Source: an uncultured Methanosarcinales archaeon
GTDB lineage: Archaea; Nanobdellota; Nanobdellia; Woesearchaeales; GW2011-AR9
Assembly (NCBI GenBank): GCA_964405725.1
Contig: CAYOOY010000005.1
Coordinates: 2,636-44,095, forward strand
Direction of reading: 5' to 3'
Length of the DNA: 41,460 nucleotides
Shown: positions 10,829 to 35,543 of the stretch, piece by piece
Position numbering within the stretch: position 1 is the first letter of the stretch
Layout: every line of letters begins with the position of its first letter
Made by a program: the position numbers and the translations under genes
The notes under the pieces: model-generated
What the model was told of the DNA's origin: nothing
Databases searched by the model: none
What the model saw: only the letters and a program-made list of their open reading frames with translations

Positions 10829-10833
10829 CGTTT

Positions 10834-10932
10834 CTACTCTTTAACATCGCCCATTTCAGCGTACTCCTCATGAACTGGATGATCGTCAGATTTTCGTCTC
10901 TTTCTTTTGGATTTTGGTTTTACTTCATTCAT
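10834..10932 (-). CDS. Candidate 32-aa basic/acidic mini-protein
   Basis: My translation gives MNEVKPKSKRKRRKSDDHPVHEEYAEMGDVKE. Its ATG overlaps the TGA of the upstream 84-aa ORF in an ATGA arrangement (10929-10932). Confidence 0.25.
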   Translation of the reverse strand: MNEVKPKSKRKRRKSDDHPVHEEYAEMGDVKE

Positions 10933-11183: not shown

Positions 11184-11263
11184 GTAATCCTCTTTTTTTG
11201 CACTTTTCTTTAAAGTAGGTACTTTCTTCTGCTATTTTAATCTTTTGGATTTTGATTAGTTTT

Positions 11264-12249: not shown

Positions 12250-12788
12250 TAGTGTTTCTCCAAAAAGGCGTTTAATTTTTCCATCGCCTTATTTCGATGA
12301 CTTATTTTGTTTTTTTCGTTTAATGGCATTTTAGCAAAGCATACATCACAGCCAACTGGTGTAAATATTGGATCCCAACCAAATCCACCACCACCAGAAG
12401 GTTTAGTTATTGTGCCATCTAATTCACCTTCAAAAAAATGAGTGTGATTACCATCTGAATATCCAATAACTGTTTTTGCGATAGCTTTTTGAGAAGGGTA
12501 TTTTTGCAATAGATTATAGATCCCTTCTGCGCTAAGAGATCCAAGGAAAAATTTGATTAACGGACCAGGAAAACCATTTAATGCTTCAAAGTACAACGAA
12601 GTATCCTCACAAAAAAATTCTTTTCCAGGATTTAATTTGCATGCTTCTTCTAATTTGGCTTTAATGATCTCATGTGGATCCATTGATTGTATTTCTACCA
12701 GATCTGCTTTATACTGTGTGATGTGAGGAATTATTAATTGTGCTTCCTCAAATTTGTGTTTGTTTCCGGTAATGAAATATAGAGTCAT
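12249..12788 (-). CDS. rdgB: Non-canonical purine NTP pyrophosphatase (HAM1/RdgB family)
   Basis: Family motifs are present: YFITGNKHKFEE, GFPGPLIKFF, GFGWDPIF, SHRNKA. Confidence 0.85.
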   Translation of the reverse strand: MTLYFITGNKHKFEEAQLIIPHITQYKADLVEIQSMDPHEIIKAKLEEACKLNPGKEFFCEDTSLYFEALNGFPGPLIKFFLGSLSAEGIYNLLQKYPSQKAIAKTVIGYSDGNHTHFFEGELDGTITKPSGGGGFGWDPIFTPVGCDVCFAKMPLNEKNKISHRNKAMEKLNAFLEKH

Positions 12789-12822: not shown

Positions 12823-14205
12823 TTACAGAGAAATGTACTGGTTTCGTTTTGGTCCAACACCAATTCCTTTTATTGGAACACCTACATAATCACTAATGAA
12901 TTGTATTAGTTCCTTAGCTTCGCCTGGTAACTTTTTACCATCTCTTATCTTAGAGATATCATGAGGAAGATGAGGAAAATATTCAATCACAGGTTTTGCT
13001 TCATAAAGAGTTGAAGTACTTGATGGCATTTTATCTGTACTGATTCCATTTACCTTGTACGCTACAACCATTGGAATACCGGGCAGTGATGTTTGTGAAT
13101 AATCGAAAAGGCAATCAAATTTTGTTACATATAATTCGTCTACCCCATTTAAGTCAATCATATGTTTTAATTGTACTAAATCAAAACTTCCTATACGACG
13201 AGGTCTTTTGGTGGTGGCGCCATATTCATCGCGCAGCATACGTAAACCAACACCTACATTAAATAGATCTTCTGATTGAAGCATTGATTTTCTATCAAAC
13301 ATTTTTTGCTCAACTTCTTTTTTGTGTTTATATCCCCCCTCAGCCATGCAATGTTCTTCTGATTTTCGTCCCCCAAATTCACTTACAAATGGACCCCACC
13401 CTACACGAGACATAATTGCTTTGCCAACCCCAAACGTTTTTGTATGGTATTTGACTGGTAAATCACCACCAACATACGCATTCGCAGCAATAGGTCTTGA
13501 AGACGTAACAAAAGGAGCAGTTCCATGCGTTTTATCAATTGCACATCCATTCGCAGATTCAAAGAAAACGTCTTTTCCAGATTTTACTTCATGAAGAAGA
13601 AAAAGGGGATCACACATGAATTGCTCCAATCTTCTAGCAGCTGCATCAAAATTTGTAGCGACTTGAGAAACGTTAACACTTAGTTTATATTTTTGAACAA
13701 CGTCTTCTAAATTATCACGCATTGAATCAAAGTAACTTGGATCAGAAAGATATCCTGCAAGTTGAATGTTTTTAATTCGATCACCAACCATACGTGTTGC
13801 TTGATCTGCATAGCAAGGTCCTCCGCCTTTTCCAGTAGTTCCTACTCCTTTTCCATGAATACCATCAAGAAAAAGATGGTGTGGTTGAATAAGAGAAGTT
13901 TTTGGATGCATGAATAATCGATCGCGTACATTAATTCCTATACGTTCAATTCCTTCAACTTCTTCATAAAATGAGTCTGGGTTTACAACACATCCTGTTC
14001 CAACATAAAGACCAGCTTTGTGTTTTATGCCAGATGGAACAGCATGTGTGATTATGTGAAAATCCCCTACTTCTAAATGATGGCCTGCATTATCAAAACC
14101 ATTATATCGGGCCCAATAATCAGCGTCAACTACTTTATCAAAAATTCGAATTTTGCCTTCGTCTCCATATTGAAGACCAACGCCAACAGTAGATTTTCCG
14201 TGCAT
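12823..14205 (-). CDS. purA: Adenylosuccinate synthetase, divergent and long form
   Basis: GLQYGDEGKIR (P-loop-like GDEGKGK region), NAGHH, PSGI and GTTGKGGGPCYADQ match PurA signature regions. Confidence 0.8.
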   Translation of the reverse strand: MHGKSTVGVGLQYGDEGKIRIFDKVVDADYWARYNGFDNAGHHLEVGDFHIITHAVPSGIKHKAGLYVGTGCVVNPDSFYEEVEGIERIGINVRDRLFMHPKTSLIQPHHLFLDGIHGKGVGTTGKGGGPCYADQATRMVGDRIKNIQLAGYLSDPSYFDSMRDNLEDVVQKYKLSVNVSQVATNFDAAARRLEQFMCDPLFLLHEVKSGKDVFFESANGCAIDKTHGTAPFVTSSRPIAANAYVGGDLPVKYHTKTFGVGKAIMSRVGWGPFVSEFGGRKSEEHCMAEGGYKHKKEVEQKMFDRKSMLQSEDLFNVGVGLRMLRDEYGATTKRPRRIGSFDLVQLKHMIDLNGVDELYVTKFDCLFDYSQTSLPGIPMVVAYKVNGISTDKMPSSTSTLYEAKPVIEYFPHLPHDISKIRDGKKLPGEAKELIQFISDYVGVPIKGIGVGPKRNQYISL

Positions 14206-20462: not shown

Positions 20463-21287
20463 ATGGAAGTTGGCGGACAAGCAGTAATTGAAGGAGTAAT
20501 GATGCGTAATAAACGCAAGTTTGCAATTGCTGTGCGTACCCCTAGTGGAGAAATAAAAATTAAAAAAGAGCGAAGTACGTATTTTCCCAAATTTTGGAAT
20601 AAACCATTTCTAAGAGGCGTCGTTGGATTAGCGTATACCTTATATGATGGTATTCGCGCATTAATATGGAGTGGTAACCAACAATCTAAAGAAGAAGAAA
20701 AAATGACAAAAAAAGAAATTATTATTACTTTAACCCTATCATTTTTGTTTTCAATTTTTCTTTTTATTGTTGTTCCTTTTTTTTCAGCTCAATGGATTGG
20801 AGGAAATGGTAAATGGTTTGATGTGTTTGATGGCATTTTTCGTGTGGTAATGTTTTTAGGTTACATACTCATTATTTCATTAATGAAGGATGTGAGAACA
20901 TTATTTCAATATCATGGTGCTGAACATAAAAGTATTTACTGTCACGAATCAGGAGAAGAACTAACTGTTAGTAATGTTAAAAAATTTAGTAGATTCCATC
21001 CTCGTTGTGGTACATCGTTTATTTTTGTAGTATTGATATTATCCATTTTTATGTTCTCTTTTATTCAGGGACCAATGTGGATGAAATTTGTTGGAAGGAT
21101 TTTGCTTCTGCCGGTACTTGCAGCATTAGGATATGAATTAATTAAGTTAAGTGCCAAATTTGATAAAAATGTCATTGTGAAAATATTGATTGCACCTGGT
21201 TTGTGGATTCAACGTTTAACAACTAAAGAGCCGAGTGATAAACAGCTTGAAGTTGGCATTGCAAGTTTGAAGGCTGTATTGGATTAG
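20463..21287 (+). CDS. DUF1385 (YqhQ-like) membrane protein
   Basis: GGQAVIEGVMMRN at the N-terminus, YHGAEHK, RFHPRCGT, and several TM helices. Confidence 0.75.
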   Translation: MEVGGQAVIEGVMMRNKRKFAIAVRTPSGEIKIKKERSTYFPKFWNKPFLRGVVGLAYTLYDGIRALIWSGNQQSKEEEKMTKKEIIITLTLSFLFSIFLFIVVPFFSAQWIGGNGKWFDVFDGIFRVVMFLGYILIISLMKDVRTLFQYHGAEHKSIYCHESGEELTVSNVKKFSRFHPRCGTSFIFVVLILSIFMFSFIQGPMWMKFVGRILLLPVLAALGYELIKLSAKFDKNVIVKILIAPGLWIQRLTTKEPSDKQLEVGIASLKAVLD

Positions 21288-21290
21288 AAA

Positions 21291-22625
21291 TTACAACAAT
21301 TCAGCAGCCAACCTTGCTACTTCACTACGTTCAGATTTCGTTAAAATCACAGGTGAAAAGATATCCTGACCCAAGAATCGTTTCGTCAAATATGTTAACC
21401 CGTTACTTTCACGATCCATGTAAGGATGATCAATTTGATACGGATCACCATTAAAAATTATTTTTGATCCTTGCGCTACTCGAGTTGCAAGAAGTTTTGT
21501 ATTCTTACGATCTAAATTCTGCGCTTCATCTACAATAATGTATGAATGAGACAAATTCCTCCCACGAGCAAATGTTGGAGTCATAAACCTAAGGATTTCT
21601 TTTTGGACCATATAATGAAGACCCATATTATCTACTTCAAAGACTTCACCATCATCTGTTGGTTTTCTTCTAGCACCATCTGAAATAGATTCATATGCAT
21701 CTTTAATAGCTTCCATAAATGGACCCATCTTTTCTTCAAGAGACCCTGGCAAATATCCTAAATCTTTTCCTGCTGTTTCAACTGGCCTAATAATAATAAT
21801 ACGTTTATATTGACCCTCACGAAGTTTTTGAATACCAACAGCAAGAGGAATAATTGTCTTTCCAGTCCCTGCTTGGCCTAATGCTGACATTATTTTAATA
21901 TCATCATCTAAACACGCATGTAATAAATAGGCTTGCTCTTTGTTTCGAGGCCTTATTGAATTAACATTATCTGGGAGATGAAGACGAGAAAACTGGTGCC
22001 TTTGGCCTCGTTTTCTATAGCGCATTAACATTCCACCATCCCCTTCCAAAAATAGATATTGATTATTAATCAGATCATCAAATTCGCTTGATTCGCCAAG
22101 TGTTACTCTTCCCCTACTTCTAAGGGTATCCCGATCATTTGAATCAAGATCTATGCAATCTGGAATTTGAAGTATGTCTGTAATTGATGCACCTTTTCTT
22201 GCCTCACGTAAGAATTCTGCTTTATGACCACGTGCAATTGCTTTTGTCAAAAGACCAGTATCCTCTGCGAGAAGTACATACTGATTTCCGTCATCTTTGT
22301 GTGTTTCTAAATAATCAACAAGAGCATCATCTGCATCTCTAAATTTTTTGTGAGGTCCACTAAAGACTACTTGCAAGGTTCCACGACCTTCTGGTATTTC
22401 TCTGCTTCCTGTATTTTGTTGTTGTTGCAAGGTATCATGAATTACATGAATGGCTTGTCCGGCATTATATCTACTCTCTCTATCAATACGCATATCTTGG
22501 CGATTAGCATCTAATTCATCCAACACCTCGGAGTGTACATATAAAGTTCCACTTAAATTAAGAAGTATCTTATAATCATCCATCAGAACGGACGTGTCAA
22601 GAAGTCGGTGCTTTTCTTTACTCAT
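21291..22625 (-). CDS. PIN-domain plus PhoH-like ATPase fusion (PhoH2-type)
   Basis: N-terminal PIN acidic residues (LLDTSVLMDD, EVLDELD, LLAEDTGL) and a C-terminal PhoH P-loop (ALGQAGTGKT) with Walker B (YIIVDEAQNL). Confidence 0.85.
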   Translation of the reverse strand: MSKEKHRLLDTSVLMDDYKILLNLSGTLYVHSEVLDELDANRQDMRIDRESRYNAGQAIHVIHDTLQQQQNTGSREIPEGRGTLQVVFSGPHKKFRDADDALVDYLETHKDDGNQYVLLAEDTGLLTKAIARGHKAEFLREARKGASITDILQIPDCIDLDSNDRDTLRSRGRVTLGESSEFDDLINNQYLFLEGDGGMLMRYRKRGQRHQFSRLHLPDNVNSIRPRNKEQAYLLHACLDDDIKIMSALGQAGTGKTIIPLAVGIQKLREGQYKRIIIIRPVETAGKDLGYLPGSLEEKMGPFMEAIKDAYESISDGARRKPTDDGEVFEVDNMGLHYMVQKEILRFMTPTFARGRNLSHSYIIVDEAQNLDRKNTKLLATRVAQGSKIIFNGDPYQIDHPYMDRESNGLTYLTKRFLGQDIFSPVILTKSERSEVARLAAELL

Positions 22626-23194
22626 CGTTTTACATGATTCAGAATTGCATCGTACTCTTTAAATCGAACATCTACCCAATACTGAAATTCCTCTTTAAAA
22701 TAATCCCTTGCGCCATTTACAAGTTGCCGGCCTAAATGAGAATAAGTATCGCTATCAATAGTACGCAACACATGGTACTCGATAGATTGGGGATTTAGAT
22801 CTTGCTTGTTAAACCTCTCAAAAAATCGGGCACCCTGTGTATGAATGCGATCCCGCATTTCATCTGCGCTTAATTCTCTTTCTCCCACTTCCATATCTTG
22901 CAACATATCAAATAACTTGATACGAGATTCTTCCTGAAATCTTCCCTTGCAACCGCGCTTATCTGTTCCTGATGTAAATGAAACATATGAAGATCTTGAA
23001 AAATGTAATACATTAAGACTATAGGCTAATCCTACCTGTTCATCGTCAAATCCATTAATATGGTCTGTAAATGTCTGTGGACATTGTAATCTTCCAAGAA
23101 TATGATGCATTGAGTATTGTTTTGCTCTTCTTTGTATTTTATCGCGAGCTGATTGACTCAAATTCGGAGAATATGTAGGAATCTTTATACGCAT
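22622..23194 (-). CDS. Hypothetical 190-aa protein translationally coupled to the PIN-PhoH gene
   Basis: The ORF overlaps the downstream PIN-PhoH start by 4 nt. I recognise no motif. A TATA-like CTTAAATAC lies about 30 nt upstream of its ATG. Confidence 0.6.
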   Translation of the reverse strand: MRIKIPTYSPNLSQSARDKIQRRAKQYSMHHILGRLQCPQTFTDHINGFDDEQVGLAYSLNVLHFSRSSYVSFTSGTDKRGCKGRFQEESRIKLFDMLQDMEVGERELSADEMRDRIHTQGARFFERFNKQDLNPQSIEYHVLRTIDSDTYSHLGRQLVNGARDYFKEEFQYWVDVRFKEYDAILNHVKR

Positions 23195-23269
23195 AGACTT
23201 GTGAGCTGAATTTTTGTATTTAAGCGTTTATGTGGTTGAATGAGTATATCAAAAATCAAGTATTCAAAA

Positions 23270-25669
23270 TCAACATACTTGACTTACATGATCCAATTTT
23301 CTGATTCTAATAACATTTTCAACAAAGCTCTCAATTTTTGGTTCATGAGAAACAATTATGATCTGTTTTAATGATAATCGCTCAATTACTTCTCTAACTT
23401 TATCAAGTTGTTCGTGAGAAAAACCATCCGTTGGCTCATCAAGAATAAGAAGATCTTTTGTATTGATAGTATGAATAACATCATTTATTACTTTGTTTAA
23501 TGCCAACCTATACGCAAGGGCGGCAGATGTCTTTTCACCACCACTTAAGTTGGCAAAACTCACTTCATACCCGTTTTGTTCAATTATTGGCGTGAATTGT
23601 TCATCTAAACGCGCATACATATGCTCACAATCAATCAACATGGAAAACCACTCCTGGAAAAGTTCATTAAAAAGTCTATAGATATGGTGCATTACATGTT
23701 TCTCAATACTATGAGTAATTTTAAGAAAATGTGATTCAAGCCAAAATTTAAGTTCTTGTTGCCTATGAAGAGTTTGTTTGTATGATTCTACTTTTTCTAA
23801 TAGCAAATTTGTTTTTACAAGAGTTTCTTGTAAATGTTGCAAAGTAGTTTTCATTTTAGTTTCAGTTAGTGAGAGTTCTTTTTCTTGCTCATGAGTTTGA
23901 GTAAGATCTTTTCGTAGCTCTGTTATACGCGGTGTGTTATCTTTTACATTTTCAAGATGTAACTTTAATTTGCTGAAATGTATTCGATCTGCTTGAATTT
24001 CTTGATGAAGTGTATCAATTGCAATTGTAATTGATGCTAGCTCTTGATTCATTCGTTTATTAGTCGCTACATGCTTTACTTTATCTTGTAATTGTTTCTG
24101 CTGGAGCTGTAAATTGGTAATTACTTTGGTGGCATTCAATTCTGTACTTTTTTCCATAAGTTCATTGTTAAGATTAATATGTATCTGTAATTTCTCATTA
24201 AATATATCAAGCTCTTGTTGCTGTACATTTATTTTTTCTAGTTGATTTGAATATGTGATTATTTTTTGTTGGGCCATGCCAACTTCTTCAAGAAGGGTAC
24301 TTGTTTCTTTTTGTTGATTTTTGATCTCTTGTAATTTTTTCTCATATCCATCTAGAAGATTTTGCGCTTGCTGAACTTTAGTATGTTCTTTTTGAGTAAT
24401 GCCATCCTTATGTTCAGAGGTAACATTCTGTAAACAAGTTGGGCACAAATCAAGAGAAGAAATTTTAGTTACAAGATCGTGAGAATGTGATAAAAGTGTT
24501 GCATTTTTGGTAATTCCTTGTTCTGTAGTAAGTGCTAATTGAGCTAACTGATGTTGCTTATTTGTAAGATCTTCTTTAGTTTGAATTTTTTCTTGAAGTG
24601 TTGAAATTAGTTGTAGTAATTCTGGCTTATGTTCTTGGTTTTTGGCAATTGCAGTAATTTGTTGTTTTGTTTCTACAATAATACTTTGAGCAGATTTAAT
24701 TTCTTGATTTATTTCGGCATCTTTCTTTTGAATATACACATGTCTTCGAGACACATCAGCAAGTTCTTTTTCAAGATCATCTTCTTGAATTTTTGGTAAT
24801 TGACTTATTGTTGTTTGTAACTCTTGCTGTTCTTTTATCTTCTTTTGAAGAGTTATTTCTTTTTGTTCTAAAATTGCTTTTAGAGTAGTATGCTCATTCT
24901 TAATTTTGTTAAATTCTTGTTGTTTCTCTTCTAATATCGAAAGCTCTTGCGTTATTTGTCCAATATGTTCACGGGCTTGATGAAGTAACGGAAGAAATTC
25001 ATCAATTGTCTTGATATGATGTTCAATATTTTTGGTAGTGTGATTTTTTTCATCAAGATATTGTTGATATGGCTCACATCTTGTCTTTAGGATAGTTAAA
25101 GAGGACCTCATTTTTTTAAGATATGTTTGTACATTTTCACGAATTTGTTTGTATTTATCAACATTGAATATTTTTCGTAAAACATCCATGCGAACTTCAG
25201 GAATCTCAGTAAGTATCTGTTTCATTTCTTCTTGGGGCGTGTATATAGTGTAACGAAAGATGAAATTTTTTGTTTTAGTAAGTAATTCTAGAGGGTAGCC
25301 AAGAAGAGAAATCATCTCTGATTTCATTTCAATTGGCATGAGGTCCTTTTGTACACCATTAATTGTAATATGTCCTGCTTGCTGTTTAACACTATTCTTA
25401 TCTTTCTTTAAATTTCGTTTAATCACTATTTGTTTGTTTGGTAATGAAAAATGTAATTCAACATATCCAGAGGTTTTTCCTTTTCGTAAAAGAAAATCTC
25501 CAGGAAGATTAGTTCTTGAAGTACCAAATAGAGCAAATTCTATAGCGAGAAGAATTGAAGATTTACCACTTCCAATATCTCCAGCAAGAACAGAATTTCC
25601 GGGCCTGAAATTGATTGTTTCATCTGTATATGATCTTATATTGTGGAGTTTGAGAGTCTCAAGAAGCAT
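23270..25669 (-). CDS. rad50: Rad50-type SMC-like ATPase with a central CxxC zinc hook
   Basis: Walker A GDIGSGKSSILLAIEFALFG, long heptad-rich coiled coils, LDLCPTCLQNV at mid-length, signature LSGGEKTSAALAYRLAL, Walker B LLILDEPTDGF, H-loop IIIVSHEP. Confidence 0.85.
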   Translation of the reverse strand: MLLETLKLHNIRSYTDETINFRPGNSVLAGDIGSGKSSILLAIEFALFGTSRTNLPGDFLLRKGKTSGYVELHFSLPNKQIVIKRNLKKDKNSVKQQAGHITINGVQKDLMPIEMKSEMISLLGYPLELLTKTKNFIFRYTIYTPQEEMKQILTEIPEVRMDVLRKIFNVDKYKQIRENVQTYLKKMRSSLTILKTRCEPYQQYLDEKNHTTKNIEHHIKTIDEFLPLLHQAREHIGQITQELSILEEKQQEFNKIKNEHTTLKAILEQKEITLQKKIKEQQELQTTISQLPKIQEDDLEKELADVSRRHVYIQKKDAEINQEIKSAQSIIVETKQQITAIAKNQEHKPELLQLISTLQEKIQTKEDLTNKQHQLAQLALTTEQGITKNATLLSHSHDLVTKISSLDLCPTCLQNVTSEHKDGITQKEHTKVQQAQNLLDGYEKKLQEIKNQQKETSTLLEEVGMAQQKIITYSNQLEKINVQQQELDIFNEKLQIHINLNNELMEKSTELNATKVITNLQLQQKQLQDKVKHVATNKRMNQELASITIAIDTLHQEIQADRIHFSKLKLHLENVKDNTPRITELRKDLTQTHEQEKELSLTETKMKTTLQHLQETLVKTNLLLEKVESYKQTLHRQQELKFWLESHFLKITHSIEKHVMHHIYRLFNELFQEWFSMLIDCEHMYARLDEQFTPIIEQNGYEVSFANLSGGEKTSAALAYRLALNKVINDVIHTINTKDLLILDEPTDGFSHEQLDKVREVIERLSLKQIIIVSHEPKIESFVENVIRIRKLDHVSQVC

Positions 25670-25789
25670 GAATTTTGCGTAATTGGGATGTTAATATAGG
25701 TTTATATGGTACGGGATATAATTTAACCACAAACTATTTATAAAATAGCTTCAATTTTACCATGTAGAGGTTCTTGATGTTCTTAGACT

Positions 25790-26611
25790 ATGAAAAAACT
25801 ACTCCCTATATTGTTAGCTTCGCAAATGGCGTGTACTACTGTGAAGGTCATTTATGTTGATCAGAAGCAACATTCAATTCAAGATGCATTGCAACATACA
25901 CCTTATTCTTCTATGCATGTGAGTGGCCAATATATGGTTGGTGAAAAGGTAAAATATTCTATTATTGAAGTTAAACAAGGTCGAAGAACAGTAGCAACAT
26001 TTCGTAGTCCTAATGGATTTGAAGAAGGAGAAGTGTTGCAGAAAAGAAATTATTCCGTAATGGAGCGACATTACCCATACAAAGAGACTGATTCTTCTGT
26101 TAGTGAATTTTTTGTAAATGGCAATTCAATTGGGTATGGGTTGCATGTTAAGGGCAGTGCAATTGGGACAATTAAAATGACAAATGTTCCCACAAATAAA
26201 TTTTCTCCTGGAGCAAAAGCAAGGACCTATAGAGATCGATTTGGTGAACATGGTACTAATTTTCAAGAAACAAGTGTGGATGTAGAAAAAAATGGTAAAA
26301 CAAATTCGCGCACAATATATCGTCAAGGACGACCATGGAAACAAATAAGTGTTCATTACAATGGACCAAAATCAGCCATACGTGTACAAAAAACGTTCAA
26401 CTATGAACAAGAATATGCTGGATTTAACAAAGTGGATACAGATACATGGATTTCTACAGAAACACATATTTCTCGCATAACCTTTCCCATAATAGTTCGT
26501 GGGATGAATTGTGAAGGAACTATATGTCGAAATCTCGAGGACTTGATACAAAAAGAATGTTGCGTTAAAGGAGAAGTTGTGGTTGGAAAAGACGCGTTGT
26601 TTGTTAATTGA
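25790..26611 (+). CDS. Putative lipoprotein or secreted protein, function unknown
   Basis: The N-terminus MKKLLPILLASQMAC is a signal peptide with a lipobox-like Cys. The C-terminus has a Cys cluster (CEGTICRN...ECC). Confidence 0.55.
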   Translation: MKKLLPILLASQMACTTVKVIYVDQKQHSIQDALQHTPYSSMHVSGQYMVGEKVKYSIIEVKQGRRTVATFRSPNGFEEGEVLQKRNYSVMERHYPYKETDSSVSEFFVNGNSIGYGLHVKGSAIGTIKMTNVPTNKFSPGAKARTYRDRFGEHGTNFQETSVDVEKNGKTNSRTIYRQGRPWKQISVHYNGPKSAIRVQKTFNYEQEYAGFNKVDTDTWISTETHISRITFPIIVRGMNCEGTICRNLEDLIQKECCVKGEVVVGKDALFVN

Positions 26612-26659
26612 CTACTTTTTAGGGACAAATTTATAAAGAAATACTCATTTTAAGTATAA

Positions 26660-28480
26660 ATGGACGATCAATTAGTTATTAAGCCAATACTTGAACAGAT
26701 TTTAGAGAGAGAATTACCACTTCATACATTAGAATCTCCCTTTAAGAGGTATGAACGTCTTTTTACTACATATTATCACCTTTTTGCGGGTCCACTTTCA
26801 TTAAGAATAACAGATTGTGATGATTCAAATACATTTGAAACTCTTCGTTTTAATAAATTAGGTCATGTGGTTGAGCTTACAGCAACGGTAGATGAAAGAT
26901 ACCATATTAAATCATACCCCTCGCTGAATGCTCTAAAAATACCGGCTTTAGATTGCTTTGATTTTCCCAATTTAACATCGTCTACTTTATTACCAGACCA
27001 TATGACAAATCAAGATATTACTACGTTGATATTCGAAATAATTAATTCATGGATTCCTACACCAAAAGAAATAATAAATGATGTCAGAGCAAGACATGTT
27101 TACAGAGGTACGCCATTAATCACTTATCCTCCGATCTATAGAGAATTACAAAAGTATGTTGATAATCCAGCATTACCACCACAAACGTTTATTTGTGATG
27201 GTTGGAAATATGAAATTTCAGCAGATAAAGTTGATACACTATTTGTTGGCCATAACGTTCCTATTCCTAACACAGCAAGAATTATCTCTCCTCCAATAGA
27301 ACCAAATATGTATGGTGATTCAGCTGATTTTCCTAACTCATTTTCTCAAGATCGAGATGGCCTATTTTCTCATATTAGTACAGGAATTAGGTTCACGTCT
27401 AGTGGTCGCGAATTAAGATGCTTTTCCCCCACCTTAGCTAATGGAAAAACTCAAATTGCAACCAGACTATTGGAATGCCAAGGTATTATAATAAATCCTG
27501 CGGATACAGCTCAAAAAGACTTTGCTTTAAAAAAAAACCCTTCAAATCGTGCTATAAAAGGCTTTGATTATTTCGATACTCGATATCTGGATGAAGTTGT
27601 GCGTACACTTGATTCATTTTCTTCTGATTTCCAATCTGATTCCCTCTATGAGAAACTAGTCAAAGTACTTCCGGAATCTGCACTTGAAGGAAATGAAGAA
27701 CTATGGAAAACGTTGATAGATATATCTACTAATAATACTGTAAGTTATAATGAATCATTTTTTGTTACTGATCGTTCAAAGGATAAATGGTTACTTAAAA
27801 TTACCAATAATAAACAGAAAGCAGAGATTGAAGCAGCAGCTAATTACTATCTTTCAAGTGAATTAGATTTTATAGTTCCTGGAAAATCACCAATACCCAT
27901 AGAAGGAAATAACTATTATATTACAATGCAAAAAGTAATTGATGATCCTACCCCGCGATCTTTAGATTACTGGATTGGGGCGTATGCAGCATTTCATCAA
28001 AATGTCGAATCAATATTTAACAAGTATAATGTTGACTTATCAACATATCAGGTTAAAGGAGATACTGCTCAATTACGAGAACATCTAAGAATGCCAATTG
28101 ATAGAACGTTGCTAAATGATGCAATAGATTATCTTAGAGAGTCTCCTCTTATCTGCCCAATTCAAGGAGATGCAAAAGAGGATAATCGATATGGAAGATT
28201 CATGGTAGATTTGGAAATGATGAGTTATGGCCATCCTGCACAAGATCTTGCACTTTTATTCTCGAGTTATAATGTGCCAAAGGAACAATGGGGATTAAAA
28301 CTTAACCAGTATGCGGCTTGTCGAAACTTTACTGAACAAGAACGAAAAGATCTTCACGATGGAATGATATATGCCTCACAATATCATCTTGTAAAAGAAT
28401 TAAATGGAATAGAAAGTAGAATAAGTACACCTACAACAAGATTCCAGCAAGAAAAATTACAACAATTCTTAGCTGCATAA
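26660..28480 (+). CDS. Large protein with a C-terminal APH/choline-kinase-like (protein-kinase-fold) domain
   Basis: Catalytic-loop-like ICPIQGDAKEDNRYG (HGDxxxxN type with Q in place of H) and Mg-loop-like VDLEMMSYGHPAQDLALL. The N-terminal ~380 aa is unassigned. ATTTATAAAG lies about 25 nt upstream of the ATG. Confidence 0.55.
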   Translation: MDDQLVIKPILEQILERELPLHTLESPFKRYERLFTTYYHLFAGPLSLRITDCDDSNTFETLRFNKLGHVVELTATVDERYHIKSYPSLNALKIPALDCFDFPNLTSSTLLPDHMTNQDITTLIFEIINSWIPTPKEIINDVRARHVYRGTPLITYPPIYRELQKYVDNPALPPQTFICDGWKYEISADKVDTLFVGHNVPIPNTARIISPPIEPNMYGDSADFPNSFSQDRDGLFSHISTGIRFTSSGRELRCFSPTLANGKTQIATRLLECQGIIINPADTAQKDFALKKNPSNRAIKGFDYFDTRYLDEVVRTLDSFSSDFQSDSLYEKLVKVLPESALEGNEELWKTLIDISTNNTVSYNESFFVTDRSKDKWLLKITNNKQKAEIEAAANYYLSSELDFIVPGKSPIPIEGNNYYITMQKVIDDPTPRSLDYWIGAYAAFHQNVESIFNKYNVDLSTYQVKGDTAQLREHLRMPIDRTLLNDAIDYLRESPLICPIQGDAKEDNRYGRFMVDLEMMSYGHPAQDLALLFSSYNVPKEQWGLKLNQYAACRNFTEQERKDLHDGMIYASQYHLVKELNGIESRISTPTTRFQQEKLQQFLAA

Positions 28481-29347
28481 TATTCCAATTCTTGAATTAA
28501 GTTGTGTTAATAATTTACTAAGGCGATAGCAATGTATTTTCAAAAGAGGATTAAATTTGACAGTTTTTCCTGCATAATCTAATCTTATTTTGTGTATTTT
28601 TTTCCATGATTTTTCCATCATAGCATAGTCTTTTTTAAGATACACTTTATACAATTCTTCAAAAAATACTCTCTTTGTAGAAAAATTAGTAAGGTCTTTG
28701 ATGTTATGTTCTACAATGTGTTCTGCAGTATTATAAAATTCTGCGCTTATTTTTTCAAGAATAGTAATTATTTCGTAATAATTATATGTGTTGTCTTCAC
28801 CAAATTTAGTCATATAAATTGAACGCAAAATATGATCTCTAAGTTTCAACATTGTTCCCTTTGCAACTGATTTAATTTGAGATAGATCTGCTTTTTTTCC
28901 TTGTTCTTCAACTTGTTTTCCAAGAACATTTACACTTTGAAACATACGAATGATTAATTTTTCAATTTCTTCTTGATTTATTGTTAAAAATGATTTAATC
29001 ACAATAGCATTTTTCTTTTGTTCCACAATTTCTAATCCTGTAAAGCTTGAGATTATTTTATTTACATCATTCATATCTGGTGCAATTTTATAGGTTAATG
29101 TAATCTTTGTATATCCTGATTTATACAAAGATGAGATAAGGCTTCGTAAATGAGAAGAAGTATAATTATCAATTGATATTTTCTTTTCTTTAACTGCTTC
29201 TGCAGCGTTTTTTGCAATAATTACTTGATTTTCAGTTTCTTCTACTTCAACTTCATCACCATTCTTTAAATTATGACGAACAGCCCACTTTCTAGGTAAT
29301 GAGATAGTATATGTTGAATTCCCCTGAATTACAATTCTTCGTTTCAT
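28469..29347 (-). CDS. AbrB/SpoVT-domain plus PhoU-like helical domain regulator (archaeal PhoU-type)
   Basis: The N-terminus MKRRIVIQGNSTYTISLPRKWAVRHNLKNGDEVEVEE is a typical SpoVT/AbrB swapped hairpin. The remainder is helical and of the length expected for a PhoU repeat pair. Confidence 0.6.
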   Translation of the reverse strand: MKRRIVIQGNSTYTISLPRKWAVRHNLKNGDEVEVEETENQVIIAKNAAEAVKEKKISIDNYTSSHLRSLISSLYKSGYTKITLTYKIAPDMNDVNKIISSFTGLEIVEQKKNAIVIKSFLTINQEEIEKLIIRMFQSVNVLGKQVEEQGKKADLSQIKSVAKGTMLKLRDHILRSIYMTKFGEDNTYNYYEIITILEKISAEFYNTAEHIVEHNIKDLTNFSTKRVFFEELYKVYLKKDYAMMEKSWKKIHKIRLDYAGKTVKFNPLLKIHCYRLSKLLTQLNSRIGILCS

Positions 29348-29355
29348 AAGGTCTA

Positions 29356-29410
29356 TTTTTCTCTATTTTTTATAAACTTATTGGAAATTATATAGAAATA
29401 TAGAGAAAAA
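29356..29410. promoter_or_regulatory. Perfect 11-bp inverted repeat in the divergent regulator/operon spacer (candidate operator)
   Basis: TTTTTCTCTAT (29356-29366) and ATAGAGAAAAA (29400-29410) are exact reverse complements separated by 33 nt that contain TTTTTATAAAC and TATATAGAAATATAG. Confidence 0.6.
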
Positions 29411-29467
29411 GTTATATCTTATTTTGTTCTCACTCGATAGTACTAGTTGTGTGTTTGGAGAAATATA

Positions 29468-30085
29468 ATGAAATATACTCAAAATGTCAAAACAAGGATT
29501 TTAGGAACCACATTAGCGCTTTATGCTGCCCTAGGTGGATGTACAACTAATCACACCCAAATTGACTACAATAATGCAAAAGTACAATCTAAGATGCCAA
29601 GATTCGAAGATGGATTTTTACAAAATCTTGAAAAGATGTGTGAAGATTTAGACATGGACTGCATGGGTTTACTAAGTATTATGGATTATGAAACAGCAGG
29701 AACATTTAGTCCAAGAATCAAAAATCCACGAGGAACTGCAACTGGTTTGATTCAATTTACCAGTGCAACTGCTCGAGATTTAGGAACTTCAACTAAAGAA
29801 CTTCGCTCTATGACTCAAAATGAACAACTTGAATATGTTCGAAAATATTTTGAACAACATCAAGATAAAGCAGATTATTCAAATCCACGAGATATTGCTC
29901 TTTCTGTATTTTATCCAAAAGCAGTTGGTAAATCTGAGAACTTTACTATCACGAGAAAAGGGAAAAGAGCATATTGGCAAAATCGTGGTTTAGATAGACA
30001 TCCAAAAGATGGTAAAATTACTGCAAAAGAATATGTTCAGCCCGCTCTTCGAAGAGGATACTTTAGAGGAGGAAAAAAGAAATGA
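29468..30085 (+). CDS. Lipobox protein with a lytic-transglycosylase / lysozyme-like domain
   Basis: I prefer the ATG at 29468 (GGAG 8 nt upstream). Signal plus lipobox is TLALYAALGGC. The SLT-like pattern is MDYETAGTFSPRIKNPRGTATGLIQFTSATARDLG (E-[ST]...GL[MI]Q...TA). Confidence 0.6.
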   Translation: MKYTQNVKTRILGTTLALYAALGGCTTNHTQIDYNNAKVQSKMPRFEDGFLQNLEKMCEDLDMDCMGLLSIMDYETAGTFSPRIKNPRGTATGLIQFTSATARDLGTSTKELRSMTQNEQLEYVRKYFEQHQDKADYSNPRDIALSVFYPKAVGKSENFTITRKGKRAYWQNRGLDRHPKDGKITAKEYVQPALRRGYFRGGKKK

Positions 30086-30450
30086 ATAAAGGAAAAACAA
30101 AAAACACACAATACAAAACAAATCTTGGATCAAGTGTACTTACTCTCGCACTAGGTTTAGGAATTGGACAGGGATGTAAAGAATATCAATCCCCTGTTAA
30201 GTCCCTTGAAGAAAGAACAACAATAGTAACCGGATTAGGGGGGTCACCAGTTGTGTCAGCAGATGATTGTTCCAAAAAATACGCTCGTTGCCTTCAATTG
30301 TGTAAGGAATTACCTGCCTATAGACTTATGATAAGGTCAGATCAAGAAATAAAAAATAAAAAAGAATTTTGTGAATATATGTGTACTCAAACCATGAAAA
30401 AATATGATCTTTGTCAAGAGGATACGACACAGTTAGAGGAGGAAAAATGA
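30082..30450 (+). CDS. Small Cys-rich lipobox protein
   Basis: Signal plus lipobox SSVLTLALGLGIGQGC, six further Cys, and a C-terminal MKKYDLC motif. It has an ATGA overlap with the upstream gene. Confidence 0.6.
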   Translation: MNKGKTKNTQYKTNLGSSVLTLALGLGIGQGCKEYQSPVKSLEERTTIVTGLGGSPVVSADDCSKKYARCLQLCKELPAYRLMIRSDQEIKNKKEFCEYMCTQTMKKYDLCQEDTTQLEEEK

Positions 30451-30821
30451 ATCAATTAGAAAAATTAATTGCAAAAATTAGTCTTGGAATGTATCTAACT
30501 CTTGGACCAATAGGCTGTGATTCAAAGAATCCCTTTGCAAACCCTGTACGAGAGTATAATGGGAAAACAACATATCAAATAGAATTAGTCTCAGAGCCAT
30601 CTACACAATTTCCAACAGAAGAGCATGTTGCTCGTGAATTTAACAACCAAGGGTTTCCATGCGATAAAGCAACTGCAAATGATGTAATGTTTGCAGAGCC
30701 AGTTTGCTCTTTATATTCAGGGCCTCTTCCAAAAGCAACAGTACGTGTGAAATGTGATGCTAATACGCTTACATGTCCAGAATTTATGAAAAAATATGAT
30801 ATTTGTCCATTCGAGAAATAA
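30447..30821 (+). CDS. Small Cys-containing lipobox protein
   Basis: I prefer the ATG at 30447 (GGAGGAAAA immediately upstream, ATGA overlap). Signal plus lipobox is LGMYLTLGPIGC, and the C-terminal MKKYDIC motif is shared with the previous gene. Confidence 0.55.
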   Translation: MNQLEKLIAKISLGMYLTLGPIGCDSKNPFANPVREYNGKTTYQIELVSEPSTQFPTEEHVAREFNNQGFPCDKATANDVMFAEPVCSLYSGPLPKATVRVKCDANTLTCPEFMKKYDICPFEK

Positions 30822-30865
30822 GAAAAATTATGTGGTGTGAATAATAAACAGGAGAAAAATAGAAA

Positions 30866-31999
30866 ATGAATAAGGAAAAAATTAAACAAACATTTACACG
30901 ATATAGAACACATATTGGAGCAAGTGTACTTGCTCTCGCCTTAGGATTAGGAATTGGCCATGGATGTAGTGAAGATCCACAATGTTATCAACCAAGCCCA
31001 AAACCAAAAGTTACTGCGACAGAAAATCCTCTTCCTCGAGCAGCACCAACAAGAAAAACAACTCTTGCACCAGGTCCAGGATCACTTCCGAATCCAATTC
31101 AGGGATATTTATGTGAAGTTATTGCAGATACTAAATCTGTTCCAGTAGCTTCAGAAAAACCACTTACTCTTACCCCAATGAATCCGGGAAGGAAAGCAAA
31201 ACGAGATCACGATGGTAAAAAGAATTCCTTTGAAAACAATGTATTGGAAGCATATTTTGCAACAAATTCATGGAAATGTTATAAGAATGATATAACTGAT
31301 GTTGCAAAACTAGCAAAACAATTAGCACCAGGAACAACCGTTATTGTTGAAGGAAATGCTGATCACCGTGGATCTGAAAAATGGAATGATGAACTTGGAA
31401 CACATCGCGCCCAAGGTATTGAAGGGATTTTACTTCGTAATAACCCAACACTAAAAATTCAAACCACTTCGTATGGTGAAGAAAAAGCAACAAGAACAGA
31501 TAAAAAAGATCTGTATTTGGATAGAAAAGTATCTATTATTCCTAATAGAAGTGTTGTTAAGCAAGCGTTGGACAAATTACCTGCAGATGTCTACTTAGTG
31601 GATCAAAGTCATTCTATGATTAACCCAACACCCGCTGGCACATCACGATGGGAAGAGATTCAAAACTATTCTTTCCCAAAAGGTAAAAAGGTGTACACAT
31701 TTTCAGATACATCTCGAACATGTGGAACAAAACTTTCAGGTGAAAAACCAGTTGGTGGAACTCCAATGTATGATTCATTAAGTGAATTAATAAACCTAAC
31801 TCCTTTCGGAAAAACGATTACTATTTTAACAGATGGCGAAGATTCTTCAAGTCGTTATGCAACAGCAGACAAGGTAGTATCGCAAGCAACGGCAAAAAAT
31901 ATTTCCATTAATGTTGTAGATCTGTCTGGGGTACCACAAAATAGTGCATTAGGGATTGCAACACAAACTGGCGGAAAAACGTACCGGATAAGTAAGTAA
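30866..31999 (+). CDS. Lipobox protein fusing an OmpA C-terminal-like (peptidoglycan-binding) domain to a vWA domain
   Basis: Signal plus lipobox ASVLALALGLGIGHGC, then a Pro-rich linker. OmpA-like core: TVIVEGNADHRGSEKWNDELGTHRAQGIEGILL...YGEEKA...DRKVSII. vWA MIDAS residues: YLVDQSHSM, GGTPMYDSL, ITILTDGEDSS. Confidence 0.7.
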   Translation: MNKEKIKQTFTRYRTHIGASVLALALGLGIGHGCSEDPQCYQPSPKPKVTATENPLPRAAPTRKTTLAPGPGSLPNPIQGYLCEVIADTKSVPVASEKPLTLTPMNPGRKAKRDHDGKKNSFENNVLEAYFATNSWKCYKNDITDVAKLAKQLAPGTTVIVEGNADHRGSEKWNDELGTHRAQGIEGILLRNNPTLKIQTTSYGEEKATRTDKKDLYLDRKVSIIPNRSVVKQALDKLPADVYLVDQSHSMINPTPAGTSRWEEIQNYSFPKGKKVYTFSDTSRTCGTKLSGEKPVGGTPMYDSLSELINLTPFGKTITILTDGEDSSSRYATADKVVSQATAKNISINVVDLSGVPQNSALGIATQTGGKTYRISK

Positions 32000-32560
32000 A
32001 TGAATTTTAAGAGTGTACTTGTTGGAGCAGCACTTGTTATGGGATTAAGTGGATGTGATAAAGAATATCGTCCACTTAACCCTTTAATTCAAGAGAGAAT
32101 TGTAACTCATGAAAATCGAGAAGGAGGGATCGCAATTTATCAATTCCATACAAGAAGAGATCCTACTATCAAGGGTGCCACATTTATTAAACAATATAAA
32201 GTGGACCCTTATGGCCAAAGAACGTTAGCGGGACACTACCAAGATTTAAACAAAAATGTGAAAGTTGATAGAGGGGATTTTTGTTTTGTTACAGAAGGTG
32301 AAACACCCCACGTCCCTCTGGAAGATAGATTTGTGTGTTCAACTCATTTGCTAAATACAATTCACACACGGCATCCTGTAGCGTATGATGAAAAAGAAAG
32401 TGATTCCTATTATTTAGATGAGAATAAGAAACTAAAAACCTATGCTCGAGATGGAATTTGGTTCCTTCAAAACAGTCCGCATACACCTCAACAATCAATT
32501 AAAAAGGCCCAAGAGTGTATCACTCTTTGTCCAACATACTTATTGGAGACAAAAGGATAA
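32000..32560 (+). CDS. Lipobox protein, function unknown
   Basis: Signal plus lipobox GAALVMGLSGC. The ATG directly abuts the upstream TAA. Confidence 0.55.
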   Translation: MNFKSVLVGAALVMGLSGCDKEYRPLNPLIQERIVTHENREGGIAIYQFHTRRDPTIKGATFIKQYKVDPYGQRTLAGHYQDLNKNVKVDRGDFCFVTEGETPHVPLEDRFVCSTHLLNTIHTRHPVAYDEKESDSYYLDENKKLKTYARDGIWFLQNSPHTPQQSIKKAQECITLCPTYLLETKG

Positions 32561-33689: not shown

Positions 33690-35543
33690 ATGTATTCGGC
33701 ATATAGTAAAAAAGATCAAGAACTATTTAAGAGAGCAACAGCACTTTCAAAAGTACACCTCTCTTCAATTCCTCGTTTAGAGGGTGATTCATTTTTTGAT
33801 CACAATGTACGTGTTGGTGAAATTCTAGCGTTACATACCGCAGAACCAGAAATTGTAATTGCCGGATTATTACATGGGATTCTGAATCATGTTGAAGCTA
33901 GCACAATATCAAAAGAATTTGGAACAGCCGTTCTTACCATATTACGTGAAGTTGAATCATTAAAAAGAGTTAAGGCAAAAAACACATCTTTGGAATCAGA
34001 ATCATTACGTAAAATAATTATCACCACTCTCAAAGATGTCAGAGTAATTATCATTAAACTAGCAGGTAAATTGGATAATTTGCGAACAATTCATGTGTTT
34101 TCTGCTAAGCGTCAAAAAGAAATCTGTGAAGAAGTAATTGACATCTATGCGCCTCTTGCGTATAGATTAGGTCTTGATAAAATGAAAACGCAACTTGAAG
34201 ATTTGGCGTTCAAAGCTCTTAATCCACGTAAGTATAAAGAGATCAATGTGTATCTTGAAGAAAGTAGACAACAAAGAGAAGAGAATGTAGAAAAAGCAAT
34301 TAGTCTCATTAAACGCATTTCAAAAAATAAAGTAGATATTGTGAAAATAAAAGGGAGGCCAAAGCACATTTATAGTATTTACAAAAAAATAACTAAACGT
34401 AAAGTCCCTTTACACGAACAATTTGATTTACTTGGTATTCGAGCTCTTTGTAAAACAATTAAAGATTGTTACACGCTTCTGGGGATACTACATGAAGAAT
34501 TTGAACCATGCGAAGGAAGATTGAAAGATTATATTGCAAATCCCAAACCTAATTTTTATCGTTCTATACATACAGCAGTTACACTGTCTAATGGGAAAAT
34601 TGCCGAGATCCAAATTCGAACTCCAGAAATGGATGAATTTGCTGAAGAGGGAGTTGCTGCTCATTGGCGCTATAAAGGTGTTAAATCAGACCAATTATTT
34701 GAGAAAAAAATGAGTTGGCTCAAATCTGTTCTTGATTTACAAAAGAATGAATTTTTAGATTCCGTTAAAGTAGATTTGTTTGGTGATAAGATATATTGCT
34801 ATACCCCAAAAGGAGATGTAAAGGAATTACCTCTTGGTGCGACCATACTTGATTTTGCTTATTTAGTTCATGAACAAATCGGATCCAAATGTGTGGGTGG
34901 AAGAATCAATGGAAAATTTGTTCGCTTAAAAGAAAAATTAACTTCGGGTGATGTAGTTGAGATTATAACAAATAAAAATCAACGCCCTAGGCGTGGCTGG
35001 ATCAAAATAGTAACATCAGCTAAAGCTCGCCAGAAAATTCGTAAGATGGTACGACAATATGATGCCTTGCCTTCGCTTCATTATCGAACATACAAACCAA
35101 CCATCAAAGAAGATTTAGGGGTATTGGTTCATTCAGAAGAATTTCCTAAAGCTATGTGTGTTTTAGCTAAATGTTGTTCGCCAGTTCCTATAGAAGAAAT
35201 TGCTGGAATAATGACAAAGCGACGCATGATATCGGTCCATTCAACAGAATGTAGGGAAGCGATAAAAGAAGAAAATAGATGGATTCCTGTTGAGTGGAAA
35301 ACTGTGTTCAATCAAAAAATTAGTTTTATGGTTGAAGCTGATGAAAGATCAGGATTACTTGCCGATTTACTTAATACAATAGCACGTTCAGGCTTTGAAA
35401 TTAAGGAAGCCAAAGGTAAATTGCGAGGAAAAGAAACAGCTTTGTGTAATTTTATTGTTATTCCGCGAGACATGGATGAATTACTTGGTATGATTAAACG
35501 TGTTAAGAAAGTTAGAGGAGTTAGACGGCTGTATTTTGATTAG
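33690..35543 (+). CDS. Long RelA/SpoT homolog: degenerate HD domain, (p)ppGpp synthetase, TGS, ACT
   Basis: HD region FFDHNVRVGEIL...AGLLHGILNHVEAS (HG where HD is expected, NH where ED is expected). Synthetase motifs: GRPKHIYSIYKK, DLLGIRALC, RLKDYIANPKPNFYRSIHT, EIQIRTPEMDEFAEEGVAAHWRYK. TGS: IYCYTPKGDVKELPLGATILDFAY. The C-terminus is ACT-like. Confidence 0.85.
   Translation: MYSAYSKKDQELFKRATALSKVHLSSIPRLEGDSFFDHNVRVGEILALHTAEPEIVIAGLLHGILNHVEASTISKEFGTAVLTILREVESLKRVKAKNTSLESESLRKIIITTLKDVRVIIIKLAGKLDNLRTIHVFSAKRQKEICEEVIDIYAPLAYRLGLDKMKTQLEDLAFKALNPRKYKEINVYLEESRQQREENVEKAISLIKRISKNKVDIVKIKGRPKHIYSIYKKITKRKVPLHEQFDLLGIRALCKTIKDCYTLLGILHEEFEPCEGRLKDYIANPKPNFYRSIHTAVTLSNGKIAEIQIRTPEMDEFAEEGVAAHWRYKGVKSDQLFEKKMSWLKSVLDLQKNEFLDSVKVDLFGDKIYCYTPKGDVKELPLGATILDFAYLVHEQIGSKCVGGRINGKFVRLKEKLTSGDVVEIITNKNQRPRRGWIKIVTSAKARQKIRKMVRQYDALPSLHYRTYKPTIKEDLGVLVHSEEFPKAMCVLAKCCSPVPIEEIAGIMTKRRMISVHSTECREAIKEENRWIPVEWKTVFNQKISFMVEADERSGLLADLLNTIARSGFEIKEAKGKLRGKETALCNFIVIPRDMDELLGMIKRVKKVRGVRRLYFD

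Follow-up and report, generated by a model that had tools for sequence, protein, structure and literature searches.

Two neighbouring units at the rad50 locus of a Woesearchaeota archaeon: a Rad50 orthologue and an orphan-phoH2 gene pair

PhoH2, as described by Andrews and Arcus, forms hexamers and joins a PhoH RNA helicase to a PIN RNase (PMC4826407, PMC7390352). It was characterised as an RNA enzyme, and its deletion in M. smegmatis had regulatory effects only (PMC7390352). In mycobacteria it has a dedicated upstream partner, PhoAT. Here we examine an archaeal phoH2 gene that lies downstream of rad50, on the same strand, with a gene for a 190-amino-acid (aa) orphan protein between the two. 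The genes lie in a stretch of 41,460 nucleotides (nt) from contig CAYOOY010000005.1 of metagenome assembly GCA_964405725.1, positions 2,636 to 44,095. This stretch is called the window, and coordinates refer to it except where a comparison locus (L number) is named. The source is a Woesearchaeota/Nanoarchaeia (DPANN) archaeon, and the same genes were found on a metagenome scaffold of 662,509 bp.

In the original prediction it was suggested that the trio could be either a repair module with a non-orthologous nuclease or a defence-like module. Parts of that proposal stood: the trio was conserved, the 190-aa protein was a true orphan and mre11 was not adjacent to rad50. The idea of Rad50, orphan and PIN-PhoH as one three-part system did not, as Rad50 was kept with or without the others and the pair was found exchanged, inverted or about 6 kb away in related genomes. 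The locus is marked by its gene structure, by a conserved promoter ahead of the orphan gene, by tight coupling of the orphan and phoH2 genes, by their co-inheritance and by their decoupling from Rad50. The reading that we favour, with moderate confidence, is that a housekeeping Rad50 and a PhoAT-PhoH2-like two-gene module of toxin-antitoxin type are neighbours by ancestry.

Promoter, coupling and inheritance of the orphan-phoH2 pair

GTDB species genomes were scanned with a Rad50 alignment, and of the sequences that matched the pattern at least 527 proved to be relatives. The best 80 of these loci were taken with 10-kb flanks and their open reading frames (ORFs) were searched with local hidden Markov models. 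The Rad50 comparison set consisted of 85 orthologues or loci, and the tree drawn from it was a neighbour-joining tree without support values. ORFs were called mechanically, and all of the genomes were metagenome-assembled.

The three minus-strand ORFs and the divergent gene that had been predicted for the locus were all present. The rad50 gene (23270-25669) encodes a Rad50-family ABC ATPase of 799 aa, recognised by AAA_23/SMC_N, by Rad50 models and by PDB sequences. It is followed by the orphan gene (22622-23194; 190 aa), a member of a small Woesearchaeota-restricted family, and by phoH2 (21291-22625), which encodes 444 aa with an N-terminal PIN domain and a PhoH ATPase/helicase domain (PF13638 and PF02562). 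The divergent gene upstream of rad50 starts at 25790 on the plus strand.

The 75-nt spacer between rad50 and the orphan gene (23195-23269, minus strand), as read from the sequence, carries a T-run directly past the rad50 stop codon (23251-23255) and the putative promoter of the downstream pair. It contains CTTAAATAC, and the TATA box CTTAAATA (23217-23224, minus strand), which follows a B-recognition-element-like ATAAACG, was identified by its conservation across lineages. In the window 22 nt separate the end of the box from the orphan ATG. The motif (C/T)TTAAATA, usually after GAAAC(G), was found in the same place in L005, L007, L009, L011, L012 and L014/L052, and in these loci and the window it ended 22-24 nt ahead of the ATG of the orphan-family gene. 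The TATA position was held by ATATATAA or TTTTATAA in L023, L078 and L036. Such motifs are sparse in the window, at 0.30 per kb per strand. None precedes phoH2, and the only promoter of the pair is the one before the orphan gene. A rad50/orphan spacer of 55-181 nt was kept in all trio loci, and T-runs followed the rad50 stop codon in the window and in other trio loci. Because a conserved archaeal TATA box sits 22 nt 5' of the ATG, the orphan-phoH2 pair has its own promoter. The suspicion of a separate promoter in this spacer was thus confirmed, and it was strengthened by the recurrence of the element at the same distance across lineages. Sites resembling sigma-70 promoters occurred in the window at chance level, and the four sites resembling intrinsic terminators were no clear excess over chance; both scans look for bacterial signals and have no bearing on an archaeon.

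TATA-like octamers also ended 21-27 nt 5' of the start codons of the window ORFs at 3902, 7346, 8415, 12249, 22622, 36557 and 37063. As this distance implies leaderless or near-leaderless transcripts, the sequence suggests that transcripts in the source organism are mostly leaderless.

The two genes of the pair are tightly coupled. The stop codon of the orphan gene and the start codon of phoH2 overlap by 4 bp (ATGA), and the gap between the small gene and phoH2 was -8 to +54 nt in 12 other loci. In each of the 14 contexts with a gene of the small family, L078 included, the next gene downstream was phoH2.

The pair and Rad50 have different histories. The Rad50 proteins of L023 and L032 are 88% identical (85.5% in DNA), a resemblance that in the DNA ends 17 nt short of the rad50 stop codon; the PhoH2 proteins are only 28% identical and the small proteins 26%. 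This discordance makes the units separable, whichever side was exchanged, and with Rad50 at 88% and the cassette at 26-28% identity it is a clean example, in DPANN archaea, of a cassette being replaced while its place in the chromosome stays fixed. The cassettes fell into type A (window, L005, L009, L012, L014, L024, L032) and type B (L017, L023, L036, L038, L078). For Rad50 the mean BLASTP scores were 630 bits within A, 625 within B and 642 between A and B. The corresponding values were 365, 285 and 186 bits for PhoH2, and 60, 82 and 27 bits for the small protein. From these scores, the small protein and PhoH2 travel together without Rad50, the sequence of which does not sort by cassette type or presence. 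Spearman's rho was -0.02 for Rad50 against PhoH2 identity and 0.38 for PhoH2 against small-protein identity, the pairs being non-independent and the p-values of rho only indicative.

The pair had no anomaly in GC or in third-position GC (GC3), no flanking repeats were found, and the pair was not found in phage, plasmid or IMG/VR collections. A recent foreign origin of the cassette is unsupported by these searches. With no trace in composition, repeats or mobile elements, cassette exchange is inferred solely from phylogenetic discordance.

The slot between rad50 and the DUF1385 gene

The closest relatives of the window PhoH2 (39-50% identity) all showed the order Rad50-like protein (799-806 aa), protein of 183-208 aa, PIN-PhoH2, usually with a gene annotated as thymidine kinase (TK) upstream and with a convergent DUF1385 gene and then PolB downstream. 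Among the best 80 loci, the small gene and PhoH2 were directly downstream of Rad50 in L017, L023, L024, L032, L036, L038 and L052. In L068 PhoH2 was directly downstream of Rad50 without the small gene, and its PIN site was intact. The pair was about 6 kb downstream of Rad50 in L078, with an MNT nucleotidyltransferase, a VapB-like/PIN_2 pair and other genes in between. Two more members of the small family, obtained by exhaustive search, were also located between a Rad50 gene and a PIN-PhoH2 gene. One part of the refutation proposed with the original prediction was a rad50/190-aa/phoH adjacency that is not conserved in related genomes, and conservation was what we found.

A PhoH-type gene occupied the slot in 17 of the 31 lineages of the window's own clade, and 14 with enough flank lacked it. 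In the tree of 85 Rad50 sequences the PhoH association was scattered through one clade, its basal branches included, and the cassette was absent from 38 of 38 members of the sister clade. A PhoH2-anchored scan of metagenomes was dominated by generic bacterial PhoH (best identity 34%) and gave no new archaeal trios; it serves as a negative control, in which none of 80 generic PhoH/PhoH2 loci had a Rad50-like or small-family gene within 5 kb. The link between Rad50 and PhoH is accordingly specific to this clade. The trio arrangement is more than chance, since its order recurs in independent Woesearchaeota lineages, unlike at generic PhoH loci.

The conserved frame of the locus is TK - Rad50 - [slot] - DUF1385 - PolB, and DUF1385 was the first conserved gene past the slot in 23 related loci. 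In the window the DUF1385 gene (20463-21287, plus strand; PF07136) is convergent, lies outside the module and forms the right-hand border of the slot; the PolB gene that follows DUF1385 in relatives is missing near it. Between the borders, several states were observed. One is the same-strand small gene and PhoH2 pair. Another is an inverted pair on the opposite strand (L016:13013-15122, L018:12442-14471 and L020:7388-9450), consisting of a protein of 166-173 aa and then one of 510-529 aa with a PhoH domain and an unrecognised N-terminal domain. Homology of the orphan family to these 166-173-aa proteins was considered and rejected (hhalign probability 0.2%). In six lineages a family of 384-427 aa was directly downstream of Rad50 on the same strand (L021:8636-9910, L025:12472-13626, L044:12463-13746, and also L028, L030 and L034). 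Neither Pfam nor PHROGs matched it; in PADLOC the L044 protein had no match, and that of L021 had only a marginal one, to PglZ (E = 0.0085). L039 held a Fic/DOC protein matching PADLOC SoFic/PDC-S04 (12976-13923), and the slot of L078 held the MNT nucleotidyltransferase and a 79-aa gene with a PIN_2 VapC-like gene (10370-12255). The slot was empty in L091, L040 and L043, and other loci had single uncharacterised genes. On this comparison of sequences, the position beside rad50 is a clear cassette-replacement hot spot, new for Woesearchaeota.

The genes annotated as TK upstream of Rad50 were of two unrelated types (L023:416-1582, 388 aa, and L007:1804-2820, 338 aa; BLASTP E = 0.16). Their distribution disagrees with the Rad50 tree, which makes the upstream flank mosaic as well.

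Rad50, mre11 and the cassette proteins

The 799-aa protein was matched by the Pfam families AAA_23, SMC_N and SbcC_Walker_B. Its best NCBIfam matches were four archaeal Rad50 equivalogs, of which NF003034 was the highest (159 bits, E = 1e-46); this is far under the equivalog cut-off of 700 bits, and the curated Rad50 threshold is not reached. All 17 of its PDB sequence matches were Rad50, from entries that we take to be those of Methanocaldococcus jannaschii, Pyrococcus furiosus and Thermotoga maritima. GDIGSGKS (Walker A), PQEEM (Q-loop), LSGGE (signature), LILDEPTDGFS (Walker B/D-loop) and VSHE (H-loop) were invariant in seven orthologues. The zinc hook CPTC (residues 409-412, codons at 24434-24445, minus strand) was placed in the centre of the coiled coil by the orthologue alignment; C409, P410 and C412 were invariant in the same seven sequences, and a central CPxC was present in 85 of 85 orthologues. 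Each of three ATPase motif patterns occurred in nearly all of the 85, and all three occurred in 77. The PADLOC LmuB model also matched the protein (104 bits, E = 2.8e-30), which is expected because any Rad50/SMC head shares ancestry, and the Rad50 models outscored it. Rad50 was a position-stable orthologue at no fewer than 85 related loci, among genes of DNA metabolism (NrdR, RNR, TK, PolB and RNase HII), and it was present with or without the cassette. The best reading of these sequence data is that the 799-aa protein is the inherited, housekeeping-like Rad50 orthologue of the lineage and a separate unit.

In the sister clade (L045-L089, e.g. L050:10001-12064) Rad50 was about 687 aa long, with about 110 residues less coiled coil, and kept the central CPxC hook and the ATPase motifs. 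L037 and L076, from one metagenome-assembled genome (JADHVE01, isolate BS150m-G64), had Rad50 of the ~800-aa and the 687-aa types; either the two clades are paralogous or the bin is mixed.

The original prediction had noted a rad50 without a neighbouring mre11, and this was borne out in the window, its flanks and the 85 related loci. No Mre11-type metallophosphoesterase was found among the window ORFs of at least 100 aa by family scan or among those of at least 50 aa, and the DxH / GDxxD / GNH(D/E) motif series was absent from every ORF of the window and of loci L001-L175. Searches of the same sequences by phmmer with P. furiosus Mre11 and E. coli SbcD gave no match even at E ≤ 10; as a positive control, the two queries recovered one another, with E between about 1e-8 and 1e-9. 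The Metallophos family was not found in extensions of about 10 kb at the window ends (L176 and L178), with about 61 kb of the 662,509-bp scaffold covered. An Mre11/SbcD-like gene was found within about 10 kb of rad50 at 0 of 85 related loci. Given its absence at every one of these, the lack of an adjacent mre11 characterises the group as a whole and is not peculiar to the trio. No earlier description of Mre11/Rad50 in Woesearchaeota or DPANN, or of Rad50 with PhoH, was found in the literature searched; that rad50 stands without an mre11 neighbour throughout the 85 loci examined is a new, if modest, observation for this group. A woesearchaeal rad50 apart from mre11 raises the question of how DNA ends are processed in reduced genomes.

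Both domains of the predicted PIN-PhoH fusion were matched in the 444-aa protein: PIN_4 (PF13638, E = 3e-9; residues 9-137, 22215-22601) and PhoH (PF02562, E = 4e-46; residues 224-431, 21333-21956), both on the minus strand. The NCBIfam model "RNA 5'-3' helicase PhoH2" matched over residues 8-444, i.e. full-length (E = 2e-43), with 148.9 bits against an equivalog cut-off of 680, which is not reached. The PhoH structure 3b85 in the PDB matched with E = 1e-23, and PADLOC gave no LmuA match. In the alignment the acidic PIN site was intact, with D10, E37, D99 and D122 invariant across archaeal and bacterial PhoH2, and the Walker A (GxAGTGKT) and Walker B (VDEAQN) motifs were likewise invariant. 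Judged by these residues, PhoH2 looks catalytically competent.

The orphan lived up to its description as a protein without recognisable motif. The 190-aa sequence had no match in Pfam, NCBIfam, PADLOC, PHROGs or PDB sequences, and a Pfam search with 14 members of the family gave none at E ≤ 1. Word-indexed homologue searches returned one and four matches; the family surfaced only in an exhaustive phmmer search of 1.84 billion representative proteins, which found just eight relatives, of 164-200 aa. Y58, K83, Q87, R91, G161, E180 and Y181 were invariant in the family alignment, which showed the motifs K(K/R)FQE..R..LY and RF.EYN.IL. The protein is basic (isoelectric point, pI, 8.5). AlphaFold2 with a 12-sequence alignment predicted eight helices with a mean predicted local distance difference test (pLDDT) of 85.7 and a predicted TM score (pTM) of 0.84; the model from the single sequence was unusable (pLDDT 33.6). 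Foldseek of the predicted structure against PDB and BFVD found no match (best E > 1, TM ≤ 0.32). The family is tiny, previously undescribed and restricted to Woesearchaeota, with a predicted fold for which no structural match was obtained.

The fold check proposed with the original prediction (degenerate Mre11, kleisin or winged helix) matched none of the three by Foldseek. A degenerate Mre11 was rejected as the model is all-helical, without the His/Asp motif set and without a fold match, and a kleisin or winged-helix protein was rejected on the Foldseek values given above. LmuC was rejected too, neither the orphan nor its relatives having a PADLOC match. With no match in sequence or fold, the orphan is not a degenerate Mre11, a kleisin or a winged-helix protein so far as these tools see. 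By its genomic association, it is a predicted partner or regulator of PhoH2, and in that role the family would give PhoH2 a second, independent dedicated upstream partner besides mycobacterial PhoAT.

The window has a G+C content of 34% and no tRNA or Rfam match. Its close relatives are titled Woesearchaeota, Nanoarchaeota or Nanoarchaeia, and the "Methanosarcinales" bin names among them are misassigned. A plus-strand ORF of 114 aa antisense to the rad50 5' end (25338-25682) is almost certainly spurious. Rad50 is separated from the TK-like gene by about 7 kb with eight genes (25790-32560), the two being adjacent in most relatives; among the eight are a 273-aa lipoprotein-like protein, a 606-aa protein with a weak APH-kinase match, a 292-aa protein with an AbrB/MazE-type N-terminal domain and an OmpA-like protein. 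Further along (33690-35543) is a long bacterial-type RelA/SpoT (HD, synthetase, TGS and ACT) in this DPANN archaeon, and RelA/SpoT homologues also lie near Rad50 in L022 and L025.

Readings of the locus and comparison with known systems

In the reading that we favour, the first unit would be Rad50, with its long coiled coil and zinc hook, transcribed alone. The second would be a two-gene operon with its own TATA promoter, from which the 190-aa helical protein would be translated first and PIN-PhoH2 by translational coupling through the ATGA overlap. By analogy with mycobacterial PhoAT-PhoH2, PhoH2 may be an ATP-driven RNA helicase that feeds RNA to the PIN RNase, and the orphan may be an antitoxin-like regulator that binds PhoH2 to restrain or direct it. 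The pair would have been swapped as a unit between lineages in the slot, probably by recombination through the conserved flanks. A PhoAT-PhoH2-like module is most likely because the operon logic is the same and the enzyme is apparently active, and cassette turnover and the toxin-antitoxin-type company in the slot fit it. A defence or toxin-antitoxin flavour is plausible only for the two-gene pair.

Several observations weigh against this reading. L068 lacks the small gene and has an intact PIN site, where an indispensable antitoxin would be expected unless it is encoded elsewhere. The orphan, at 190 aa and with a predicted compact eight-helix fold, is unlike typical antitoxins, which are short and partly disordered. 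Read-through transcription from rad50 may also occur. The pair adjoins rad50 in 13 of 14 cases, so that a neutral neighbourhood requires unusually stable local synteny. There is no compositional sign of foreign DNA and no presence in phages, plasmids or IMG/VR, which leaves mobility beyond allele exchange unsupported. The trees are neighbour-joining without support, and the genomes are metagenome-assembled throughout.

Three other readings were weighed against the same observations. The orphan could have a positive role instead of an inhibitory one, as the subunit that gives a housekeeping PhoH2 its specificity or targeting in RNA processing, for example by choosing the RNA substrates, the cassette types reflecting fast co-evolution of two subunits. 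A compact globular fold predicted with confidence, the pI of 8.5, the conserved K/R/Q/E/Y positions, a cassette that is old within the clade and without compositional anomaly, and the purely regulatory effects of PhoH2 deletion in M. smegmatis (PMC7390352) are all in keeping with such a subunit. It must be set against these that the pair was lost or replaced in 14 of 31 lineages, that distant alleles were exchanged between close relatives, that toxin-antitoxin or Fic genes hold the same slot in other lineages and that L068 lacks the subunit. Loss, allele exchange and slot company are more in line with a conflict-type module that can be dispensed with than with a core enzyme, and we regard the targeting subunit as a possibility with a modest chance. 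The same-strand order Rad50 - small gene - PhoH2 appears ancestral to one clade, and it invites the proposal of a single machine in which DNA or RNA-DNA ends would be the joint target of Rad50, the PIN nuclease and the PhoH motor. The 190-aa protein would be its adaptor, in place of Mre11 or in addition to it, and the nuclease/ATPase pairing would loosely resemble NurA-HerA. A PhoH-type gene was kept in 17 of 31 species-level lineages in spite of Rad50 identities of about 40-47%; all three cassette types, the distant A and B as well as the inverted C, adjoin Rad50; L068 retains the Rad50-PhoH2 adjacency without the small gene; and the lack of Mre11/SbcD-like ORFs at the 85 loci and of Rad50 neighbours at the 80 generic PhoH loci, the latter making the link clade-specific, can be read in the same way. 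Adjacency alone is weak evidence here, however, because the neighbourhood is conserved beyond operons and includes the opposite-strand DUF1385 and PolB genes. Also against the proposed machine are the pair's own conserved promoter, the swap of the cassette under an 88% identical Rad50 and a Rad50 sequence unsorted by cassette type or presence. Further, three lineages have the pair in inverted orientation and one has it about 6 kb off, the slot is empty or filled with unrelated toxin-antitoxin-type genes in others, the sister clade of Rad50 orthologues has no PhoH nearby, and PhoH2 was characterised as an RNA enzyme (PMC7390352). We consider such a machine unlikely.

A more modular proposal is quite improbable in our estimate. 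In it Rad50 of this Woesearchaeota clade may act without a neighbouring Mre11, or possibly without any, and the slot would supply interchangeable nuclease partners: either type of PIN-PhoH2 (A or B) together with its helical adaptor, the PhoH protein of the inverted pair (type C) or the 400-aa protein. If true, this chromosomal, Rad50-anchored system would be a possible evolutionary bridge from Mre11-Rad50 repair to Lamassu-type immunity based on SMC proteins. The Lamassu-type reading itself, with the Rad50-like protein as LmuB sensor, the 190-aa protein as an LmuC-like middle subunit and PIN-PhoH as an LmuA-like effector, draws on the PADLOC LmuB match (104 bits), on three genes in one strand and on an effector side that is variable, as it is across Lamassu families. 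Against this, the Rad50 models score higher (159 bits) and the PDB matches are all Rad50; no LmuC or LmuA model matches either cassette protein; Rad50 is position-stable among housekeeping genes of DNA metabolism at 85 or more loci, not a patchy island gene; and the three genes are not co-inherited, the effector pair having a separate promoter. Three of four membership features fail at this locus, and a Lamassu system is very improbable. Setting the reading of SMC sensor, adaptor and nuclease apart from the comparative data guards against over-annotating the neighbours of Rad50 as defence genes.

Among known systems, archaeal Mre11-Rad50 is matched in that the 799-aa protein has every sequence hallmark of Rad50, the CxxC zinc hook included. 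It differs in a somewhat shorter coiled coil (687-aa proteins in the sister clade) and in that none of mre11, herA and nurA, the last two belonging to the system of thermophiles (HerA-NurA), is within about 10 kb in the window and the 85 loci. Lamassu (LmuA/LmuB/LmuC; DdmABC) likewise has a small protein and a protein with a nuclease domain encoded next to an SMC/Rad50-like ATPase, whereas the ATPase here is a position-stable housekeeping orthologue and the other two genes are inherited independently of it, from their own promoter. The toxin-antitoxin systems of type II of the VapBC kind share with the pair a PIN nuclease after a small cognate gene, as well as turnover, allele replacement and loss among close relatives, and MNT, PIN_2 and Fic/DOC genes are found in the same slot of related genomes. 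In contrast to VapBC, the "toxin" is a two-domain enzyme of 444 aa, the upstream protein has no recognisable DNA-binding antitoxin domain, and no mobile-element signatures or flanking repeats were found here. PhoAT-PhoH2 of Mycobacterium and Thermobispora (Andrews and Arcus 2015, 2020; PMC4826407, PMC7390352) differs from the present pair, known here from sequence alone, in that the partner in Woesearchaeota has 165-208 aa (190 in the window) and a compact predicted eight-helix fold, is matched by nothing in the databases and is not known to be a relative of PhoAT, and in that the host is a DPANN archaeon with a fixed slot beside rad50 and at least two deeply diverged, exchangeable types. In both, PIN_4 is fused to PhoH, the acidic PIN site is intact and Walker A/B motifs are present; the smaller gene comes first in a two-gene operon with overlapping or tightly spaced frames, and the partner evolves much faster than PhoH2.

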